From Ignavibacteria bacterium UBA2360 (GTDB lineage: Bacteria > Bacteroidota > Ignavibacteria > Tepidaquicellales > OLB5): a DNA stretch of 64,000 bases. A program made the position numbers and the translations under genes. Positions 3 to 63,195 of this stretch are shown here, one piece after another; within the stretch, counting starts at the first letter, position 1, and the number at the start of each line of letters is the position of its first letter. The stretch lies in assembly GCA_002344125.1 (NCBI GenBank), contig DDTQ01000004.1, positions 4,717-68,716 of the forward strand. The letters are read 5' to 3'. The notes beneath the pieces were generated by a model, which saw only the letters and a list, made by a program, of their open reading frames with translations, did no database searches and was not told where the DNA came from.

Positions 3-1040
3 TTTCCGTGGGAAATTGCAAAAGAACTTGGTGAAATGGGTTTCCTTGGGATCATGTTCCCCGAAGAATACGAAGGTTCAAATCTTACTATTTTAGATTA
101 CGCTATTATAGTAGAAGAAATCTCCAAAGCCGATCCTTCAATGGGATTAACTGTAGCCTCGCATAATGGACTGTGTACAAACCATATTTACACGTTTTCC
201 AATGACGAGTTAAAGAAAAAATATGTCCCCGATCTCGCTTCAGGCAGAAAACTTGGAGCATGGGGTTTGACTGAAAATGTTTCAGGCAGCGATGCTGCCG
301 GAATGGCAACAACTGCCGTTAAAGATGGTGACTATTATATCTTAAATGGAAGCAAAAGTTTCATTACTCAGGGCGGAGTAGGGCAGACGGCAGTTGTTAC
401 TGCCGTTACTGATAAATCTAAAGGCTCCAGGGGAATTTCTGCTTTTGTAGTTGAAAAAGGCTTTGAAGGCTTTTCTGTCGGCAAAAAAGAGAACAAACTC
501 GGCATGCGTTCAAGCGATACATGCGAACTGATTTTTGATAATTGTAAGGTGCCCGCTGAAAACCTGATAGGTAAGGAAGGCGAAGGCTTTAAGCAATGCA
601 TGCAGATACTCGATGGCGGAAGGATCTCGATTGCCGCTTTATCAGTTGGTATTGCACAGGCCGCACTTGATCATTCCATAAAATATGCTAAACAGCGCAA
701 GCAGTTTGGCAAATCACTGGCTGAATTCCAGGGAATTCAGTTTAAAATTGCAGATATGGCAACAGAAGTTGAAGCCGCAAGACTGCTCACTTACAAAGCT
801 GCCGTTATGAGAGATGAAGGCAAGGATTTTAAATTCGCGGCCTCGCTTGCAAAATACTTTGCCAGCGAAATTGCATGCAAAGCTACCAATGAGGCAATAC
901 AGATTCATGGCGGTTACGGGTTCATTAAAGAATTTCCTGTTGAAAAGCTGTACCGTGATGTAAAACTCACTACAATAGGTGAAGGTACAAGCGAAGTTCA
1001 GAAGATGATCATGGCAAGAGCCTTGGTCGAAATGTATTAA
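3..1040 (+). CDS. acyl-CoA dehydrogenase (5' end cut by window edge)
   Basis: The frame is open from nt 3 ([17 protein letters not shown]...), so the start lies upstream of the window. ACAD-type motifs are present: [26 protein letters not shown] and the C-terminal [17 protein letters not shown]. Confidence 0.85.
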
Positions 1041-45504: not shown

Positions 45505-45604
45505 CCTCACCCCCAGTTCCCTCTCCCAAAGGAAGAGGGGGAGATATCCTAAAGACTTTCGGATTTAGTTCCCCTCTCCTTGCAGGAGAGGGTTAGGGGT
45601 GAGG
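45505..45604. repeat. family-A GC-rich palindromic element, full copy
   Basis: cctcacccccag ttccctctccc aaa ggaagaggggga ... tcccctctcc ttgca ggagaggg ttaggggtgagg. It begins 5 nt after the flippase stop codon. Confidence 0.8.
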
Positions 45605-46413: not shown

Positions 46414-46523
46414 TTTAACTGCCCGGATTGGTTATAAACTAATTGATAAGATCCAAAGATAGGGTGTACAAATCAGTTAAAAGAACTTCACACCTCAAAA
46501 CCTGTAGCATGTAACTTGTAACT

Positions 46524-46799
46524 CTACGGAGTATACTCTTTCAGCTTATCTTTAATAGCCGCTTTTTCAACTGTATTGCCTTCGTTGAGCTGTTTAACTA
46601 TATCATCAATAATCTGTTTGGCTTCTTCTTTTTTATAATCCTTAATAAAGCCATCGAAGTAGCTTTCGCCCGCTAGCGCGCGGTTAATTTCAACGTGCTT
46701 ATTGTGCTCGTTTAGTTCTGTATAATATACCACGTGGAATTTTTCATTATACTGCTTATCGCGGTAAATTTCGAACATTATTTTATCTGACTCGTACAT
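46524..46799 (-). CDS. hypothetical 91-aa protein
   Basis: An intact ORF in an accessory-looking region. No recognised motif. Confidence 0.5.
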   Translation of the reverse strand: MYESDKIMFEIYRDKQYNEKFHVVYYTELNEHNKHVEINRALAGESYFDGFIKDYKKEEAKQIIDDIVKQLNEGNTVEKAAIKDKLKEYTP

Positions 46800-46948
46800 T
46801 GGTATTGATGGATGAGAAAATTAGTGATTTTTAGCTGTTTTTTATGATTTAGCTACAAATTTAGCGTAAAGTATGGATTTAGACAAGGCATTTACTTTAG
46901 AGCGTTTGAATGCCGTTTTTTTATCAAAAGTAATATTTATATTAGTAC

Positions 46949-47134
46949 ATGGAAAGCACTAAACTAAAAGAATCACTTCTAAAGATCGCTGAAGGGGTTG
47001 AGCCTGAAACTACCCTTGAAGATATTTACAAACAGCTTGCATATCTTTCAGATATTGAAGAATCCGAAGAGCAGGAAGCCCGCGGTGAAGTAGTTACACA
47101 GGAAGAAGTTGAGAAGATGCTCAATAAATTCTAA
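46949..47134 (+). CDS. hypothetical 61-aa acidic protein
   Basis: ATG-initiated ORF. The C-terminal EARGEVVTQEEVEKML loosely recalls antitoxin-type tails, but there is no partner gene. Confidence 0.4.
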   Translation: MESTKLKESLLKIAEGVEPETTLEDIYKQLAYLSDIEESEEQEARGEVVTQEEVEKMLNKF

Positions 47135-47221
47135 GTACACATGATACCTTTACTTATTACTTGTTTTAATTTAAATTAATAATTATTGTTGCTTTACACG
47201 CAAGGGGGTTGACGAGACTAA

Positions 47222-49639
47222 ATGTCTTGTTGGCTTCCTATTTTTGTTAGTAAAGAAATTAATAAATTTATGGATAATGATTTCAATAAGATTAATTCTC
47301 TAATAGAAAAAGCAATTAATTTACAAAGTAGAGAACTTATTATAAGAGGATACAATTGTAAAAGACTACCGGAGAATATTGGTAATGCAGTACATTTAAG
47401 TGAATTATTTATTGAAGGAATCAATCTTGAAGAGTTGCCTGCTTCAATAGGGAACCTTCATAATTTAGATTCACTCTATTTAAGTGAAAATAAAATAAGA
47501 ATTTTACCTAATTCTATTGCAAAATTAAAGTCTATTAGGACATTAGGGCTAAGTAATAATAGGTTTAATAAAATACCACCACAAGTTTTTAAACTAAGAT
47601 ATTTGCATAATTTGTATTTGAACGGTAATGAAATTGCTGTTTTAGATCCCAAAATCAGTGAATTACATTATTTAGAATATTTGGATTTTAGTTTCAACAA
47701 AATCTCACAAATACCGGAAAATTTTTCGAAATTGAAAAATTTGAAATTTCTTGATTTGATGTATAATAAGATTAGGCAGTTTCCAAAAGAGTTAGTAAAT
47801 AACAGTAATTTAGTAGACTTGAATTTAGGTTCTAATTTGATCGATTCGATAGATCATTTGAGCAGTATGGAGTATTTGCAAAGCATAACGTTAGAGTCTA
47901 ATAGGATTTATTCTATACCGTTAGACATTTCGAAAATGCAAAATTTAAAAAGTTTGAATTTGAGTTACAATAATATTAGAGTCTTGCCACGAGAGTTATC
48001 CCAAATTGGGACATTGAAAGAACTAAATGTGGAAAACAATCCTCTTGTTGTACCCCCAATAGAGATCCTTTATGATGGTATTAAAGCAATCGAAAACTAC
48101 TATGATTCAATAGGGGAACAAGAAACATTTTACTTATATGAAGCGAAGTTACTGATTGTGGGCTCTGGCGGTGTGGGTAAAACTACTATCTTAAATTGTT
48201 TGGTTGATTCTGAAATTGGAGATTTAAAAAGTATCAAGACAACGGAAGGAATAAAAGTAGAAAATTGGTATTTAAAAACTGATAAAAACATCAATTTCCG
48301 TGTCAATATTTGGGATTTTGGCGGTCAGGAGATTTATCATGCAACTCATCAGTTTTTTCTTACCAAAAGATCATTGTATGTTTTTGTTTGGGATGCAAGA
48401 ACAGATGATAATCTATTAAGTTTTGATTATTGGCTAAACATAATTGATTTATTAAGTGATTCAAGTCCAGTTATTGTTATTATGAATAAGCTAGATGAAA
48501 GAAATAGAATGCTTGATGAAGAATCATTAAAAAGAAAATTCCCAAATATTAAATCATTTCATAAAGTGAGTGCTTTAAATGGTGTAGGTTTAGACTATCT
48601 AAAAACCTTAATTAGAGAACAGGTTGTAACATTACCGCATGTCGGTGATACACTTCCAATTGTGTGGAAGGAAATTCGTGAACATTTAGAGAAGTTGAAT
48701 GATAATTACATATCTTATAAAGAATATTTAAAATTATGTCATAAATTTAATCTATCAAAACCAAGGGCAGTTTATCTTAGCAGATATTTCCACATTTTAG
48801 GGGTTTTTTTACATTTTGAAGATAATCCATTGCTAAAGAATACTCTTATTCTAAAGCCAGAATGGGCCACACAAGCTGTTTATAAAATTGTTGATAATAT
48901 CGAAGTTCAAAAAAAATACGGTGTTTTGGAATATACTCAATTGTCTGAAATATGGGAGTTGTACCCACATGACAAATATGAGGTACTTATTGAATTAATG
49001 AAAAAATTTGAATTGTGTTTTGAGATTGCTAATAGTAAAGTCTATATAATTCCTGAACTCTTAAATCCTGTAAAGCCCAGTTTTGGTTGGGATGAAGATA
49101 ATAACTTGCGATTTGAATACAGCTATAAGTTTATGCCTGCAGGTTTAATAACGAGATTAATAGTAAGGATACATGATCTAATCAAAAATGATTTCTATTG
49201 GAAGAACGGATTTATTTTGACTTTTGAAAATACTGAAGCGTTAGTTATAGCGGAGGGTTTAGATAGGAAAATAAGAATATGGTTGAATGGTAGTAAAAAA
49301 AGGGAACTACTTGCTATAATAAGAAGAGAAATTTACGCAATACATAAATCATTAAATAATTTATTTGTTGAAGAAAGAATTCAATGTATTTGCTCTGAAT
49401 GTAAGAAATCATTTTCTCCATATTTCCATATTTTTGATGATTTATATATAGCTAGGCAAAAGAACAGAAAATCTACTGAATGTAAAAAGAGTTTTCAAAA
49501 CGTTAATATTGAAGAATTGTTAGGTTCAGCAATTGGCCCAAATTCAGAAGAGGGTATTAGTACTCCTACTAATCCAACTATTAATATCGATAACAGTCTT
49601 GTCAATTTTGCAGATTCTATAGGTGATATAATCAAGTAA
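47222..49639 (+). CDS. ROCO protein: leucine-rich repeats + Roc (Ras-of-complex) GTPase + COR domain
   Basis: About 11 LRRs (LxxLxLxxNxIxxIP, aa ~35-290). Roc motifs are G1 GSGGVGKT (48161-48184), G3 DFGGQ (48314-48328), G4 NKLD (48484-48495) and G5 SAL. A COR-like region follows (WKEIREHL...ILKPEWATQAVYKIV), then the tail CICSECKK...TECKKS. An alternative start is the ATG at 47270. Confidence 0.85.
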   Translation: MSCWLPIFVSKEINKFMDNDFNKINSLIEKAINLQSRELIIRGYNCKRLPENIGNAVHLSELFIEGINLEELPASIGNLHNLDSLYLSENKIRILPNSIAKLKSIRTLGLSNNRFNKIPPQVFKLRYLHNLYLNGNEIAVLDPKISELHYLEYLDFSFNKISQIPENFSKLKNLKFLDLMYNKIRQFPKELVNNSNLVDLNLGSNLIDSIDHLSSMEYLQSITLESNRIYSIPLDISKMQNLKSLNLSYNNIRVLPRELSQIGTLKELNVENNPLVVPPIEILYDGIKAIENYYDSIGEQETFYLYEAKLLIVGSGGVGKTTILNCLVDSEIGDLKSIKTTEGIKVENWYLKTDKNINFRVNIWDFGGQEIYHATHQFFLTKRSLYVFVWDARTDDNLLSFDYWLNIIDLLSDSSPVIVIMNKLDERNRMLDEESLKRKFPNIKSFHKVSALNGVGLDYLKTLIREQVVTLPHVGDTLPIVWKEIREHLEKLNDNYISYKEYLKLCHKFNLSKPRAVYLSRYFHILGVFLHFEDNPLLKNTLILKPEWATQAVYKIVDNIEVQKKYGVLEYTQLSEIWELYPHDKYEVLIELMKKFELCFEIANSKVYIIPELLNPVKPSFGWDEDNNLRFEYSYKFMPAGLITRLIVRIHDLIKNDFYWKNGFILTFENTEALVIAEGLDRKIRIWLNGSKKRELLAIIRREIYAIHKSLNNLFVEERIQCICSECKKSFSPYFHIFDDLYIARQKNRKSTECKKSFQNVNIEELLGSAIGPNSEEGISTPTNPTINIDNSLVNFADSIGDIIK

Positions 49640-49670
49640 TAATAAATTCTAAAAAATAAATAGTTAAATT

Positions 49671-49988
49671 ATGAAAATAAAGAATATTAATATTAAAGAT
49701 AGTCAAGTTAATTTTGCGGACAAAATTGATTCGATAAATTACAATCAGAATACTAGTGTTAATGAAAGTCAATTTGAAGATATTAAGAAAACAATTCTTA
49801 GTCTATCAAATGAAGAGAAAGCAGTTTTGTTGAGCCACCATAAAGAAATTGTAAATGATGCAAACATTGATTCTAAGATGTCTAAAATGGAAAGTGTAAA
49901 GGCTTTTTTGATTAGGAATGGTTCATCAATGATAACTTCTGTTTCTGCAAATGCAATTTATGAAGTTTTAAAAACGTTTTTAGTATAG
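49671..49988 (+). CDS. hypothetical 105-aa protein sharing an N-terminal motif with the ROCO C-terminus
   Basis: It starts 31 nt downstream of the ROCO gene, on the same strand and with the same low GC. The N-terminal INIKDSQVNFADKIDSI compares with the ROCO tail INIDNSLVNFADSIGDI. Confidence 0.6.
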   Translation: MKIKNINIKDSQVNFADKIDSINYNQNTSVNESQFEDIKKTILSLSNEEKAVLLSHHKEIVNDANIDSKMSKMESVKAFLIRNGSSMITSVSANAIYEVLKTFLV

Positions 49989-50603
49989 TCGTGTTCCCGC
50001 TATCGCCTCCACAATTGTCGTTCCTTTGACCCCCTCTTTGTCTCCCCCTGTTAGGGGGAGAGAATTGATAAACCCCTCCTTCAACTCATCCCACTTCATT
50101 CCTATTTCCGTCTGATTAGGTACAAGCAATTCATCCGTTATCTCATCGCCATCGGCAAAGTTCAGCTCGCAAGCGTGAACGTTTTGGGGATTCTTATAGT
50201 CATATATCGGCATACCGAACCTGCGGCAAATTACCGGGCGCGCTTCGTAGATGGTGCATTCGCCTTCGGTGCCAAGGGCGGGGCAGGGGACCTCCTCTGT
50301 TACAACACTGACCCCCTCTGCGAACATACCTGCGGTATGTTCTTTTTCTCCCCCTGTCAGGGGGAGATTCGTTAAATAATCCCTCGCCTTTTGCTGCAGC
50401 TCCTCACGCCGCTCCCGCGGCAATGCCCGGATATGATCCTGTATAATATACGCATCTATCAAAGTAATTTTAAATATCTGTGAGCAGCACTTACTGCAGC
50501 CCTTCCGGCACTGTATCTTATCGCCATATATCTCAAGGTTGCGGTCAAATTCCACCTGTATAAGCGAGGTAATATCGTAAAATTTTTGTTTGATTTCAGT
50601 CAT
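49980..50603 (-). CDS. YkgJ-family Cys-cluster (zinc/iron-chelating) protein carrying two in-frame palindromic-element insertions
   Basis: CRKGCSKCCSQ (CxxxCxxCC) near the N-terminus, with later Cys residues (CPALG..C..., CRRFG). Two LPLTGG(E/D)KE segments are encoded by 21-nt palindromes at 50041 and 50347. Confidence 0.65.
   Translation of the reverse strand: MTEIKQKFYDITSLIQVEFDRNLEIYGDKIQCRKGCSKCCSQIFKITLIDAYIIQDHIRALPRERREELQQKARDYLTNLPLTGGEKEHTAGMFAEGVSVVTEEVPCPALGTEGECTIYEARPVICRRFGMPIYDYKNPQNVHACELNFADGDEITDELLVPNQTEIGMKWDELKEGFINSLPLTGGDKEGVKGTTIVEAIAGTRLY
50041..50061. repeat. family-B palindrome tctccccct-gtt-agggggaga (inside CDS)
   Basis: Perfect 9-bp stem with a 3-nt loop. It encodes LPLTGGD on the minus strand. 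Confidence 0.8.
50347..50367. repeat. family-B palindrome tctccccct-gtc-agggggaga (inside CDS)
   Basis: Identical to the 50041 copy except for one loop base. It lies 306 nt (102 codons) away, so it is in the same frame, and encodes LPLTGGE. Confidence 0.8.
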
Positions 50604-50680: not shown

Positions 50681-50810
50681 AAACACACCCCTTCGCAATT
50701 GCATAAATGCAATTGCTCTTCCCCTCTCAAGAGGGGAATCTGAATCTTAATTCCCCTCTCAAGAGGGGTGGCTTCATCCCGAGCATTCGGGATAAAGACG
50801 GGGTGTGTTT
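50681..50810. repeat. 130-bp composite nested-hairpin element (MITE-like or structured RNA)
   Basis: Outer 11-bp inverted arms aaacacacccc / ggggtgtgttt enclose four structures. These are the 22-bp perfect palindrome gcaattgcat-aa-atgcaattgc, two ttcccctc-tcaa-gagggg(aa) hairpins, and atcccga-gcat-tcgggat. Confidence 0.7.
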
Positions 50811-61572: not shown

Positions 61573-63195
61573 TTGAACCTGAGACTAAAAATATACTTAA
61601 TTTTTACTTTTACGATAATACTTCAGTATTTTTCCGGTGTTGTTTTTGCTCAACTGCCAACGCAGCAATGGGTTGCCCGTTATAATGGTGTTAATAATGG
61701 AGATGAGACGGCAGTGGATATGGCCTTGGATTCATCCGGCAATATTTACGTAACAGGCAGGGATGGCGATGTGCCCGAGGGCTTCGTAACAATTAAATAT
61801 AACTCAGCCGGTGTGCAGCAATGGACTGCCCGCTATACGTTAATTTCAACTATTATCCCCATACCGGTTAAAATTGCGGTTGATAGAAACGGAAATGTAT
61901 ATGTTATTGCCTACGATTATGAGTGCATATTGGTTAAATATAATAATAATGGAATACAGCAATGGGTGAGAAGATATCATGGTCCTATGGGGACAGGCGG
62001 GGATAACGCTTTCAAGGATATTGCAATAGACTCTGCAAATAATATATATGTAACAGGTAAGTCAAGGGTTACAAATCTCGTAGGAGATCTGGTAACGTTA
62101 AAATATGACCCGGCAGGTGTTCTTATCTGGGTCAAAAGCTACAATAGAGTTTCAGGGGATACAGGAGGTGCAGGCGGAAAATCGATTGTTATAGATAAGC
62201 AGCATAACATAATTGTAACAGGTAATCAGGAAACTTCAAATGGTTCAAATGTTCTCACTATAAAATATAATATAAATGGCGATTCGTTATGGAACAGAGA
62301 ATATAGAAGTGTATATAACCGGAATGACGAAGGTTATATTGTAAGAACAGATTCACAAAATAATATTTATGTAGCAGGACACACTGAAAGAACTATTTCA
62401 GATAATCTTATATTAACTTTAAAGTATAACTCTTCCGGAGTTTTTCAATGGAATAGTTTTTATCATGGTCCCGCACCGGATTCAGTAACCGGAACCACAA
62501 TTAATATCCCACATGATATGATTGTGGACGGGCTTGGTAATGTTATCGTTACAGGCGAAAGCACTACACCAGAGACTGATTATGATTACGCAACAATAAA
62601 ATATAATACTAATGGTATAGAGCAGTGGTCAAGAAGATATACACGACCTGGCTGGGAAATAGATATTCCTAATTCATTAACATTAGATAGTTCAGGAAAT
62701 GTTTATGTAACAGGTTACGTCCATACGCTTAAGTATGATCCTTTGGGCAGTGTAGTTTGGGAATTTGATAATTTTTACAGTGGAAGATATTATTCAGGAA
62801 TAAAAATTTTATTGGCAAACAATAACGATATGTTACTATTTGGCACATACTTTTCAATACCATATTGGGATTTAATAACGTTTAGATTTTCACAGGTAAC
62901 TGGTATTAATCAAATTATTAATAGCGTACCCGAAAGCTACTTTTTAGGTCAAAACTATCCAAACCCATTTAATCCTGATACTAAAATATCTTTTGGGATT
63001 CCAGGATCAGGTGTTGTTAAAATAAAAGTTTTTGATGTTTCAGGAAGAATTATCTCTGTTATATTAGATAAATATTTAACTGCAGGCTCTTATGTTGTTG
63101 ATTTTGACGGAGGAAACTATTCAAGCGGCATTTATTTTTATAAAATTGAAAATGATAATTTTATAGAAACCAAGAAAATGATATTATTAAAGTAA
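61573..63195 (+). CDS. SBBP beta-propeller repeat protein with T9SS C-terminal sorting domain
   Basis: TTG start and signal peptide. Repeated units D..GN(I/V)YVTG ... (T/L)(I/L)KY(N/D)..G...W. C-terminus NYPNPFNPDTKISFGIP...SGIYFYKI...KKMILLK. Confidence 0.75.
   Translation: MNLRLKIYLIFTFTIILQYFSGVVFAQLPTQQWVARYNGVNNGDETAVDMALDSSGNIYVTGRDGDVPEGFVTIKYNSAGVQQWTARYTLISTIIPIPVKIAVDRNGNVYVIAYDYECILVKYNNNGIQQWVRRYHGPMGTGGDNAFKDIAIDSANNIYVTGKSRVTNLVGDLVTLKYDPAGVLIWVKSYNRVSGDTGGAGGKSIVIDKQHNIIVTGNQETSNGSNVLTIKYNINGDSLWNREYRSVYNRNDEGYIVRTDSQNNIYVAGHTERTISDNLILTLKYNSSGVFQWNSFYHGPAPDSVTGTTINIPHDMIVDGLGNVIVTGESTTPETDYDYATIKYNTNGIEQWSRRYTRPGWEIDIPNSLTLDSSGNVYVTGYVHTLKYDPLGSVVWEFDNFYSGRYYSGIKILLANNNDMLLFGTYFSIPYWDLITFRFSQVTGINQIINSVPESYFLGQNYPNPFNPDTKISFGIPGSGVVKIKVFDVSGRIISVILDKYLTAGSYVVDFDGGNYSSGIYFYKIENDNFIETKKMILLK

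Follow-up and report, generated by a model that had tools for sequence, protein, structure and literature searches.

Within the window, by which we mean the whole 64,000-nt stretch of DNA that was analysed, an AT-rich island carries the gene for an LRRK2-like Roco GTPase and that for a 105-aa partner, hereafter ORF105. The island and the features of the Roco gene are as follows.

47135..49990, no strand: AT-rich compositional island, only two genes inside (GC; GC3 about 3.5 sd under the 41 other genes)
47222..49639, + strand: Roco GTPase gene, 805 aa from ATG 47222 (Pfam; phmmer against the Chlorobium tepidum Roco)
47339..48091, + strand: leucine-rich repeats (LRRs), aa ~40-290 (Pfam LRR_8 E 6.5e-30, LRR_14 E 1.6e-27, LRR_4)
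48146..48601, + strand: Roc G domain, aa 309-460 (Pfam Roc over aa 309-425, E 4.8e-25; Ras E 8.3e-13)
48161-48184, 48314-48328, 48485-48496 and 48566-48577, + strand: motifs G1, G3, G4 and G5 in Roc
48656..49063, + strand: COR-A, aa 479-614 (Pfam PF16095 E 4e-39, full model length)
49100..49522, + strand: COR-B, aa 627-767 (Pfam PF25497 E 1.1e-37)
49385-49402 and 49481-49483, + strand: Cys cluster within the COR-B model, CICSEC (aa 722) and C754

The GC content of the island (0.285) is lower than in any other sliding window of 2856 nt, about 4 sd under the mean of 0.396 (sd 0.027), and that of 46450-49990 is 0.298, compared with 0.401 for the rest of the window. GC3 is 0.231 in the Roco gene (z -3.5) and 0.217 in ORF105 (z -3.8), against a mean of 0.413 (sd 0.051) for the 41 other genes, and the codon-usage distance of the Roco gene deviates as well (z +2.7). 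These values verified the sharp compositional break claimed in the preliminary description, and its outline of an island holding only an 805-aa and a 105-aa ORF, 31 nt apart, was reproduced. Two small ORFs left of the island (46524-46799 and 46949-47134) have a composition closer to host values, so the left boundary given there is about right. Because of its deviating GC, GC3 and codon usage, the gene pair was probably imported horizontally into this Ignavibacteriaceae genome. No mobility gene or tRNA was found at the island edges, and the flanking genes are housekeeping- or envelope-like, including a polysaccharide flippase-type protein and a YkuD transpeptidase. An assembly artefact was ruled out, since at least eight contigs that were assembled independently, from several samples, show the same arrangement and have 0-1 differences over 4.2 kb.

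Pfam searches established the complete LRR-Roc-COR-A-COR-B order in the 805-aa Roco, with the G motifs GSGGVGKT at residue 314, DFGGQ at 365, NKLD at 422 and VSAL at 449, as the preliminary description had read them. The LRRs number about 11, as estimated from a ~23-aa period and not by direct count. The C. tepidum Roco (6hlu_A) matches the window protein over aa 76-720 (phmmer E 2.2e-79), and an AF2 model of a fused homolog, P0066, matches 6hlu at E 5e-42. The Cys-containing C-terminal region noted previously falls inside the COR-B model, and the cysteines of CICSEC together with C754 are invariant among 41 homologs (alignment A6). No enzymatic output domain was recognised in the Roco by Pfam, again in agreement with the preliminary description. 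ATG 47270, which yields a 789-aa form used by some gene calls, is a likelier start than ATG 47222. A hairpin at 47203-47239 spans the first ATG, AAGGGGG lies 13 nt ahead of it, and no SD-like sequence precedes the alternative start.

The end of the Roco gene and ORF105 contain the following features.

49577..49636, + strand: sensor-side motif, aa 786-805, extreme C-terminus of the Roco, TINIDNSLVNFADSIGDIIK (alignment to partner, DNA repeat D3)
49579-49614 and 49685-49720 (span 49579..49720), + strand: imperfect 36-nt direct DNA repeat D3, 75% identity, encoding both motif copies
49640..49670, + strand: AT-rich intergenic spacer of 31 nt between the Roco gene and ORF105
49671..49988, + strand: 105-aa partner gene, ORF105 (homology to the Roco C-terminal module)
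49671..49745, + strand: partner-side motif, aa 1-25, MKIKNINIKDSQVNFADKIDSINY (family conservation)
49764..49985, + strand: partner helical domain, aa 32-105, five predicted helices (AF2)

The ORF105 stop overlaps a convergent 207-aa gene by 9 nt. No SD-like sequence was found in the spacer ahead of ORF105, in agreement with the missing RBS reported earlier, and no terminator either. A word-indexed search with ORF105 returned only ORF105 itself. A profile search, by which the earlier proposal that homologs be sought was answered, demonstrated 115 clusters at 50% identity, of which about 46 stand alone and about 65 form the extreme C-terminal end of a larger protein. ORF105 aligns to the last ~105 aa of P0007, P0014, P0047, P0066, P0075, P0078, P0079, P0082, P0091 and P0105, and MKIKKIVNKEGSQANFADKIDKVVF is internal to P0066. 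In every case the module forms the extreme C-terminus, behind repeats of sensor type (LRR-Roc-COR, pentapeptide repeats or LRR only), and an enzyme downstream of it in the same protein was never seen among the homologs examined. Close Roco relatives hold TM helices, TIR or Mrr where the module otherwise sits. The homology of the second gene to the fused tails is established, and by this homology ORF105 is the split-off form of a Roco C-terminal module that is fused after COR-B in many relatives, making the window locus a split version.

The helical domain of the module is modelled with pLDDT 84-95 in P0066, and its last helix is moderately hydrophobic with many small residues. It has no Pfam family, no PDB fold match with E <1 and no TM segment (best 19-residue Kyte-Doolittle mean 1.17), so any activity proposed for it is a guess. 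PADLOC recognised neither the Roco nor ORF105.

The two motif copies of the window are identical at 11 of 17 residues, and their Smith-Waterman score of 49 (shuffles 19 +/- 4) was reached by none of 20,000 shuffles. The motif spans ~24 residues and is strand-like; the Roco copy, of ~20 residues, is N/I-rich and follows COR-B after a linker of ~18 residues. No segment of the family is better conserved (2.52 bits/column versus 1.59 and 2.10), yet the motif is predicted to be disordered: AF2 pLDDT is <50 for ORF105 aa 1-14 in the free context and likewise for residues 704-753 of P0066 in the fused context. With a profile made only of the partner-side motifs of other loci, the sensor tails score weakly, at E 0.001-3 in a set of 2592 fragments. 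Fused relatives retain the motif, which is therefore not purely an adaptor.

The split recurs, with the motif on both partners, in seven further diverged loci. In L001, L002, L004, L015 and L021, a Roco with the motif at its end precedes an ORF of 104-105 aa with the motif at its start, and the junctions range between an overlap of 11 nt and a gap of 33 nt. Among the 120 listed homologs, all four motif-ending Rocos have a motif-starting partner. Both partners carry the motif in eight of the nine distinct loci examined; in the ninth, L016, the contig ends 87 nt upstream of a stand-alone partner and the upstream fragment is without motif. At L013, 4 nt separate the Roco gene, with the motif on its tail, from a motif joined to a class III nucleotide cyclase (PF00211, E 8.6e-12), and at L019 a 231-aa non-Roco protein that ends in the motif precedes a small partner. 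The motif is thus used with another effector and with another sensor, and from these two arrangements we judge that it can be detached from the helical domain. On the Roc-COR tree the split Rocos lie dispersed, with non-split proteins as their nearest relatives; identity is 77.8% between P0057 and the TM-tailed P0090, and 61.9% between the window Roco and the fused P0007. Taken together, the ORF105 homologs and the linkage of Roco and module, by fusion in many Rocos and by adjacency in these seven loci, answer the earlier question of co-conservation and leave well founded the suggestion that output must come from the partner. Two points were absent from the preliminary description, namely that the partner is a part of the Roco itself that has been split off and that a short motif is common to both halves at the break.

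We favour, with a probability of roughly 0.6, the reading that these two genes form a Roco (AP-GTPase) conflict module that was acquired horizontally and whose output is delivered in trans by way of a homotypic beta-motif. The LRRs would form the presumed ligand-sensing surface, and Roc with COR-A/COR-B would act as a nucleotide-driven conformational and dimer switch, by analogy with the C. tepidum Roco. The motif, unfolded in the isolated proteins, would serve as a homotypic coupling element and pair strand to strand or as a stacked cross-beta. In the way that short motifs held in common couple NLR immune sensors to their effectors, the shared motif probably lets the Roco recruit or switch on its partner: the activated Roco might recruit the ORF105 protein, nucleate its assembly, or both. 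The helical domain of ORF105 would then be the terminal output, its likeliest action being to stop the infected cell through a toxic activity, either membrane-directed or self-assembling. The C. tepidum Roco becomes monomeric on GTP binding (PMC11052575), so an oligomeric nucleation platform is not obviously provided. We infer the defence role from two sources. LRR-AP-GTPase-COR proteins with variable C-terminal effectors have been predicted to be counter-invader systems (Kaur et al., 2021; PMC8195603), and three homologous loci have defence-like neighbours, namely PADLOC PDC-S26 (7e-60) at L001, a caspase and PDC-S31 at L002, and Lit (1e-21) and PDC-S48 at L019. The window's own flanks contribute nothing to this reading.

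The copy on the Roco tail could instead be a functionless vestige of a small tandem duplication of the motif that split a fused gene, the two proteins being independent or joined via other surfaces. Such a duplication would leave direct repeats like the 36-nt copies of D3, 106 nt apart, and Met already stands at motif position 1 in 33 of 38 fused forms, so that a single stop codon would be enough for the split. Partner-side motifs are also more conserved than sensor-side tails, and tail and partner motifs match locus by locus with weak support for co-variation (exact permutation P = 0.032, n = 8). However, a useless tail of ~20 residues should vanish fast, whereas this one is kept at the extreme C-terminus in eight loci with 39-62% identity between their diverged Roc-COR cores, which lie dispersed among relatives without the split. 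The window copies differ mostly at synonymous positions, the two copies at L021 share the same one-residue-longer loop, and the motif also connects a Roco with a cyclase at L013 and, at L019, the small module with a non-Roco protein. We consider a vestige unlikely.

A similarly low probability is given to a housekeeping signalling pair without a conflict role, for example a Roco that controls a membrane or envelope process via its small helical partner. While the envelope- and housekeeping-like neighbours in the window, the absence of a matching PADLOC model and the lack of an experimentally shown function for any bacterial Roco in the literature searched are in keeping with this, the composition of the gene pair is strongly foreign and its distribution patchy. 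Close Roc-COR relatives moreover exchange their C-terminal modules, TIR, nuclease and EAD outputs included, and the neighbours at the three loci named above are defence-like.

Somewhat less probable still is that ORF105 regulates the Roco as an inhibitor, antitoxin-like partner or chaperone, with the motif docking the small protein so that the sensor is held off. Small neighbouring proteins are often regulators, and this one has no TM segment and no recognisable toxic or enzymatic domain. In sister Rocos, though, the C-terminal position of the module is taken by TIR, an Mrr-type nuclease, TM helices or EADs (see also Kaur et al., 2021; PMC8195603), and the motif-tagged partner at L013 is a nucleotide cyclase, an output-type enzyme. 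The occurrence of the module on several unrelated repeat sensors would be expected of a portable output more than of a dedicated inhibitor. A decaying Roco gene, with ORF105 as a remnant frame no longer expressed or useful, is very improbable: the locus does resemble an interrupted version of its fused relatives, ORF105 lacks an SD-like sequence and the word-indexed search gave no homolog, but the ~46 stand-alone clusters comprise full-length proteins that begin right at the conserved Met, ORF105 has kept the module's conserved positions, the junctions are operon-like with some ATGA-type overlaps, the Roco gene ends cleanly in the triple stop TAA TAA TAA, and the other small-ORF starts examined are also SD-less.

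The conflict module proposed here shares its core, rapidly evolving LRRs followed by Roc and COR, with the AP-GTPase systems of Kaur, Iyer, Burroughs & Aravind (2021; eLife 10:e70394, PMC8195603). Those systems have a variable C-terminal effector position with at least 24 domain types, and their source data sometimes place the effector in the next gene, e.g., 'LRR+AP-GTPase+COR-> GT4'. The sampled rows of their table list 627-944-aa proteins as 'LRR-repeats+AP-GTPase+COR' with an empty output position, and the portion of that source covered here holds no description of the ~24-residue motif, the small helical module or a split with the motif on both partners. The C. tepidum Roco (PDB 6HLU, 3DPU, 8R4B), which serves as structural model for the bacterial homologs of LRRK2, likewise has its domains in the order LRR-Roc-COR-A-COR-B, but a different C-terminal region and no known partner, whereas the window locus has a C-terminal tail and a second gene.

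The EAD principle (Kaur et al., 2020, 2021) follows the same logic, in which a small non-catalytic element on the core and on an effector encoded nearby couples the two homotypically. EADs are folded domains, for the most part alpha-helical and Death-like, with tens of residues or more, whereas the element here is a ~24-residue strand-type peptide predicted to be disordered alone; Pfam EAD models match neither the Roco nor ORF105. The BASS1-10/Bell pairs (Dyrka et al., 2020; bioRxiv 10.1101/2020.01.06.895854) and fungal NWD2/HET-S likewise have adjacent sensor and effector genes with a ~25-residue motif on facing termini. The BASS/Bell and window motifs both have a conserved N, a G-type turn, a hydrophobic pattern and few P and L, and both systems have a small helical effector with a hydrophobic terminal helix. 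BASS motifs are also reused on other effectors, including a guanylate-cyclase-type domain (10.1101/2020.01.06.895854), as at L013. The window family differs in that its motif is K-rich, without G/Q/V enrichment, and is kept in fused 'all-in-one' forms. Hosts also differ, being filamentous Actinobacteria and Cyanobacteria for BASS and unicellular-type Ignavibacteriaceae or Bacteroidota here. By this comparison, the proposed coupling resembles that of amyloid-motif (NLR/Bell) or EAD systems, and departs from BASS/Bell in its sensor class, a Roco GTPase (or a pentapeptide-repeat or other protein) in place of a STAND NLR, in its reversed polarity, with the motif on the sensor C-terminus and the effector N-terminus, and in its undescribed helical output domain.

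ORF105, the 105-aa product of the gene that follows the Roco GTPase gene, is a trans-encoded version of a module that relatives of the Roco hold in output position. Although a word-indexed homolog search with ORF105 matched nothing except ORF105 itself, and one with a 14-sequence alignment (A1) returned 3 proteins only, an exhaustive profile search of 1.84 billion representatives found 115 clusters homologous to the ORF105 module (a motif of ~24 residues followed by a helical domain). The ORF, proposed in the preliminary description as a small partner of the GTPase, thus has homologs. About 46 of the 115 clusters are stand-alone proteins of 96-119 aa, nearly all of which start MKIxK(I/V)NIxGGQVNFAD(K/R)IxKIxY. 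Larger proteins make up ~65 clusters, always with the module at the extreme C-terminus, and include Rocos, pentapeptide-repeat proteins (~500-620 aa), one LRR-only protein and others. Many Roco homologs (~790-930 aa) end in an ORF105-like sequence of the form ...K.FL..NGIP.AQSLSASAIFELLK.., and an internal MKIKKIVNKEGSQANFADKIDKVVF in P0066, a homolog with the module fused to the Roco, matches the ORF105 N-terminus. The module has no Pfam family and no PDB fold match, and comparison of 33 members with Pfam gave scattered chance matches. The preliminary interpretation of the pair as an NTPase sensor whose output would come from its neighbor is supported; not seen at that stage was that the partner is a split-off output module, and that a motif is duplicated on either side of the split, recurrently and with different partners. 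By implication, some small "orphan" ORFs beside NTPases are fragments split from a larger protein, recognizable only by profile search. Expression of the Roco and ORF105 as a readthrough or frameshift fusion is ruled out, as the genes lie in different frames with a triple stop and more stops between them.

The pair and its surroundings are laid out as follows (window positions, or residues of the Roco).

Features of the Roco-ORF105 locus
46524-46799, minus strand: 91-aa ORF (ORF91), GC3 0.42, nearer host than island
46949-47134, plus strand: 61-aa ORF (ORF61), GC3 0.32, nearer host than island
47222..49639, plus strand: Roco ORF, 805 aa
Roco aa ~40-290, plus strand: LRRs; like Roc, COR-A and COR-B far above curated Pfam thresholds
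Roco aa 309-425, plus strand: Roc G domain, Pfam E 4.8e-25
Roco aa 479-614, plus strand: COR-A, PF16095 E 4e-39, nearly full model length
Roco aa 627-767, plus strand: COR-B, PF25497 E 1.1e-37, nearly full model length
49671..49988, plus strand: ORF105, 105 aa, 31 nt after the Roco ORF
49980..50603, minus strand: 207-aa CxxCxxCC gene with two GC-rich palindromes inside

The window protein is a ROCO of the LRR-Roc-COR type, in agreement with the family in every feature that could be tested. COR-A and COR-B lie directly C-terminal of Roc, as ROCO membership requires, and the G motifs (GSGGVGKT at 314, DFGGQ at 365, NKLD at 422 and VSAL at 449) and the Cys cluster were found where the preliminary description had placed them; the cluster belongs to COR-B, and its cysteines are invariant in 41 homologs. 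By sequence, the closest solved structure is the Chlorobium tepidum Roco (6hlu_A, E 2.2e-79), then Methanosarcina Roco2 (4wnr, E 1.5e-70) and LRRK2 (~1e-43). An AF2 model of the fused homolog P0066 (43% identical) likewise has 6hlu as its best PDB match (E 5e-42). In CtRoco, GTP binding and hydrolysis are tied to a dimer-monomer cycle (PMC11052575); for the window Roco the analysis covered the G motifs. Its 90% cluster includes a member labelled Ignavibacteriaceae bacterium at NCBI. The first ATG of the Roco ORF (47222) falls within a 16-bp hairpin with a T-run (47203-47249). Translation from ATG 47270 would yield 789 aa, with an N-terminus that aligns to where P0066 begins; several public gene calls use this start, which is probably the true one.

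The shared motif lies at both ends of the gene junction: the window Roco ends in ...NPTINIDNSLVNFADSIGDIIK, and ORF105 begins with MKIKNINIKDSQVNFADKIDSINY. Within the motif core, 11 of 17 residues are identical, and the Smith-Waterman score of the pair (49) was equalled in 0 of 20,000 shuffles (19 +/- 4). In DNA the copies form a 36-nt direct repeat of 75% identity, and they differ largely at synonymous sites. When the window and nine loci were searched in six frames with a motif profile, the eight loci that have the motif on both partners each gave two matches, precisely at those termini, and no others. A leave-out profile built from the partner side of other loci only found the sensor tails weakly (E 0.001-3 among 2592 fragments), which indicates that the sensor-side copy is more divergent; each weak match lies at the extreme C-terminus, and given their weakness we claim no strong profile-level significance for individual tails. 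Cognate tail-partner pairs are only slightly more alike than non-cognate ones (exact permutation P = 0.032, n = 8).

Seven loci beyond the window show the motif on both sensor and partner termini. Behind each of the other three motif-ending Rocos in the top-120 list (P0080, P0097 and P0057) comes a gene for 104-105 aa with the motif at its start, and further loci (L015, L016, L019 and L021/L022) were reached by working back from stand-alone partners. L015 and L021/L022 encode Rocos with the motif at the end, and in L021 an extra loop residue is common to both copies. At L016 the contig ends 87 nt upstream of the partner, and the remaining 29 upstream residues contain no motif. At L019 (468-5748, GCA_035299025.1) a 231-aa non-Roco protein ending FRIENIHVSGGQANIAGEIKDIKY... 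precedes a partner beginning MKIENLNVSGGQVNIADKIEKIIY. This 231-aa protein is without known family, and beside the pair lie a Lit-like peptidase U49 and a DEDDh/BRCT protein (PDC-S48); here the putative coupling motif is used outside Rocos, among defence-like neighbors. Locus scans, limited by a tblastn confirmation step, yielded one locus from genomes and one from metagenomes, and the viral scan yielded zero. The genome locus, L013 (Ignavibacteria MAG JAUYAB010000081.1, 615-4323), encodes a 1023-aa Roco ending ...MAINNLNLHGGQANFGNEIGAINRD, and 4 nt later a 210-aa gene whose product opens with MKINNIVIKGGQVNYAEKIENIYF, followed by a class III nucleotide cyclase (PF00211, E 8.6e-12). This motif-tagged cyclase suggests that some systems signal through, or deplete, nucleotides. 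The motif is thereby shown to be portable to another effector (the L013 cyclase) and another sensor (L019). The paired genes overlap by up to 11 nt or lie up to 33 nt apart, which is operon-like. The motif, the helical module and the motif-tagged cyclase are three families absent from current domain libraries.

Split Rocos are scattered on the Roc-COR alignment, and the nearest relative of each is a non-split protein, which indicates that the split-with-motif layout arose or was transferred repeatedly. The tree is a neighbor-joining tree without bootstrap, and percent identities carry more weight: the window Roco shares 61.9% identity with the fused P0007, P0057 shares 77.8% with P0090 (its tail position is taken by a TM helix), and the L021 Roco shares 71.5% with P0004. 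Tails of close Roco relatives are TIR, Mrr-type nuclease, EAD, nSTAND or TM, and this variety indicates that output modules are swapped on a conserved chassis. Among other tail classes (C-terminal ~120 aa of P0011, P0016, P0020, P0040, P0043, P0063, P0090, P0094 and P0121), a short repeated strand-like element of their own (e.g., EISPHIEVSPTIEQKxVIEQ) stands before a true TM helix or a "AAGKWAFDFATSVGSSLVAEAIKK" helix, and the clade as a whole may share this layout of a short beta element followed by a hydrophobic helix. A profile comparison of the ORF105 module with the "AAGKWAFDFATSVGSSLVAEAIKK" tail class was not significant: hhalign aligned the last helix only (P 0.018, probability 2.6%), which was rejected as a sign of homology. 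Among fused proteins, 33 of 38 (P0127-P0232) keep Met at motif position 1, and in the sole fused locus with DNA (L014:3780-3812) a purine-rich GAGAAAGGAAG lies 4-14 nt upstream of the internal ATG. From this one DNA example, it is speculative that fused genes also yield the free module by internal initiation.

AF2 modelling of ORF105 (3-sequence alignment) predicted five helices from residue 32 (pLDDT ~85-90), with residues 1-14 below 50. The model of fused P0066 (41 sequences) has a confident LRR-Roc-COR and a confident helical domain (pLDDT 84-95), and its residues 704-753, the linker and motif, are at pLDDT 25-30 with no secondary structure. The motif is the most conserved segment of the family (2.52 bits/column, versus 1.59 and 2.10 for the other two segments). 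Such strong conservation of a segment that AF2 leaves disordered in the monomer suggests that association may be what makes it fold. In composition the motif is enriched in N (3.6x), I (3.3x) and K (2.1x), with L at 0.2x, P at 0.08x, G at 0.6x, Q at 1.0x and V at 0.9x, and it has alternating hydrophobic positions and a GG/NS turn. Its profile also matches 16 rungs or repeats ("NANTGAINFANTIDS...") of P0125, a 4001-aa beta-helix or adhesin-like repeat protein, most likely by convergent similarity to beta-helix rungs and not homology. The composition pattern and the P0125 rungs point to a putative strand-turn-strand element.

The Roco gene and ORF105 are set apart from the host by composition. 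GC is 0.285 at 47135-49990 and 0.401 in the rest of the window, which makes this the lowest stretch of the 64 kb, ~4 sd under the mean of equal-length sliding windows. GC3 of the Roco ORF (0.231, z -3.5) and ORF105 (0.217, z -3.8) is below that of the other 41 genes (0.413 +/- 0.051), and synonymous codon usage of the Roco ORF is an outlier (z +2.7). ORF91 and ORF61 are closer to host values, and the compositional island therefore consists essentially of the Roco and ORF105. The AT-rich two-gene island of the preliminary description, with its 805-aa and 105-aa ORFs spaced by 31 nt, is borne out by these values and by the ORF positions. The 63% GC sample that the same description took at 50221 is accounted for by GC-rich palindromes, CTCCCCCTGTTAGGGGGAG and TTCCCCTCTCAAGAGGGG, at 50035-50061, 50341-50367, 50719-50736, 50751-50768 and 45565-45578. 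Two of these (50035-50061 and 50341-50367) are in frame in the 207-aa gene, encoding PLTGGEKE and PLTGGDKEG, and the others lie between genes; the palindromes resemble small REP/MITE-type elements. The identical locus occurs in 8 or more contigs that were assembled independently of one another, from several bioreactor-sludge samples, a recurrence that rules out an assembly artefact. With 0-1 differences between contigs, strain polymorphism gave no selection signal.

At the right edge of the AT-rich island, the stops of ORF105 and the convergent 207-aa gene overlap by 9 nt (49980-49988), so that the island has its limit within the 3' end of a gene of host composition; the two genes have no terminator-like hairpin between them. 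ORF61 and ORF91 sit between host genes and the island. The ORF61 protein is acidic and by eye resembles small antitoxin-type proteins; ORF61, ORF91 and ORF105 have nothing significant in Pfam, NCBIfam or PADLOC. Nothing at the island shows how it inserted: tRNA, integrase and flanking direct repeats are all absent. The product of a second gene with unusually low GC3 (0.26), at 61720-63195 on the plus strand, has repeats of beta-propeller type (NIYVTG...TIKYN motifs); this gene, too, may have been acquired.

We class the pair as a putative Roco/AP-GTPase conflict system that would be wired by a shared terminal motif. Within the window, support for a defence role is its foreign composition and nothing else direct. 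PADLOC-DB v2 returned no significant match, the best being weak and partial (Roco E 0.009; ORF105 E 0.0014 to PDC-M14B), and the window flanks contain no defence or conflict genes, no mobility gene and no tRNA, the neighbors being housekeeping-like. PADLOC matches were found among neighbors at three other loci: PDC-S26 at L001 (7e-60), caspase and PDC-S31 at L002, and Lit (1e-21) and PDC-S48/DEDDh at L019. In this small sample of three loci, the neighbors fit a defence-island habitat.

Bacterial Rocos are the standard structural models of LRRK2, and we know of no output or biological role for them. From this locus and related ones a concrete output can be proposed: a portable C-terminal module that is either part of the sensor chain or encoded separately, and that a short shared motif would join to the sensor. 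We infer that the motif would couple sensor to partner homotypically, that LRR-dependent sensing and the GTPase cycle would govern this coupling, and that the helical domain would be the terminal output. The output favored, tentatively, is a self-assembling or membrane-directed activity, because sister Rocos bear true TM helices in the same position, because the last helix combines moderate hydrophobicity with many small residues, and because no enzyme ever follows the helical domain; this step is weak because the domain itself is without TM segment, family or fold match. Coupling could take two forms: strands might dock stably on each other, so that the two proteins reproduce the fused one without a covalent bond, or cross-beta assembly might be nucleated, in the manner of NWD2/HET-S or NLR/Bell pairs. 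That fused forms keep the motif speaks for a role beyond that of an adaptor, and assembly of the output itself may depend on it. By analogy, the motif might constitute a new prion-like amyloid signalling motif family, in which the activated Roco's exposed or clustered copy would template cross-beta structure in the partner and trigger the helical or cyclase effector; its support is indirect, from the conservation of the motif and its predicted disorder in monomers, and we regard this extension as possible and rather doubtful. If true, such signalling would reach beyond STAND/NLR to Roco GTPases and pentapeptide-repeat sensors, would include the opposite terminal polarity and non-filamentous Bacteroidota and Ignavibacteria, and would give bacterial LRRK2 relatives their first defined output mechanism. 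To our knowledge, wiring by a shared short motif has so far been described for NLR-type proteins of fungi and filamentous bacteria, and homotypic beta-assembly here would add a new sensor class and new phyla to this form of immune wiring. An EAD-like adaptor role of the helical domain was considered and rejected, since in all 115 matches the domain is at the terminus and in none is an enzymatic effector attached to it.

Compared with known systems, EADs (EAD1-12, bDLD) are folded, mostly alpha-helical adaptors, whereas the element shared here is a short strand-type peptide; the Roco tail, ORF105 and 33 family members have no Pfam EAD match. Closer are the BASS, HRAM and PP/RHIM-like pairs, sensor-effector pairs with shared amyloid motifs of ~25 residues (Dyrka et al. 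2020, bioRxiv 10.1101/2020.01.06.895854), which likewise carry a ~20-25-residue motif at the termini of a sensor and effector from adjacent genes. One motif serves different effectors in both, here the helical module mostly and the class III cyclase in L013; guanylate cyclase is also among the BASS effectors (Dyrka et al. 2020). Published amyloid motifs are enriched in N/Q/G/V/I, depleted in K/P/L and beta-prone. In our motif N, I, L and P fit this profile and K, G, Q and V do not, and the alternating hydrophobic pattern and the likeness to the P0125 beta-helix fit the beta propensity. The amyloid-motif pairs have an NLR-type STAND NTPase as sensor, and their motif is at the sensor N-terminus and effector C-terminus, whereas here the sensor is a Roco (or, in L019, the 231-aa protein without family) with the motif at the sensor C-terminus and effector N-terminus. 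The published pairs have NLR-type sensors only, with the polarity opposite to ours, and come from filamentous Actinobacteria and Cyanobacteria, and "Roc" and "GTPase" are both absent from the text (Dyrka et al. 2020). Fused "all-in-one" forms of those systems drop the motif, whereas fused Rocos and other fused sensors keep it between sensor and helical domain. As two defining features differ (sensor type with polarity, and motif loss in fused forms), the amyloid-signalling class is only a working analogy. The literature searched contained no experimental link of Rocos to phage defence and none to amyloid-type signalling, and its CtRoco papers portray bacterial Rocos as bare LRR-Roc-COR cores (PMC11052575). 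In the AP-GTPase conflict systems, which have been proposed to act against invaders, LRR-AP-GTPase-COR proteins have 24 or more alternative effectors in the C-terminal position, and in some of the listed cases the next gene encodes the effector (Kaur et al. 2021, PMC8195603). Sampled rows of its table hold 627-944-aa proteins annotated solely as LRR-repeats+AP-GTPase+COR, and the module and motif appear undescribed in those rows (Kaur et al. 2021, PMC8195603). The window pair has the LRR, AP-GTPase and COR core of these systems, the adjacent ORF105 is homologous to fused C-terminal modules, and the variable C-terminal position is matched by the TIR, Mrr, EAD or TM tails of sister Rocos.
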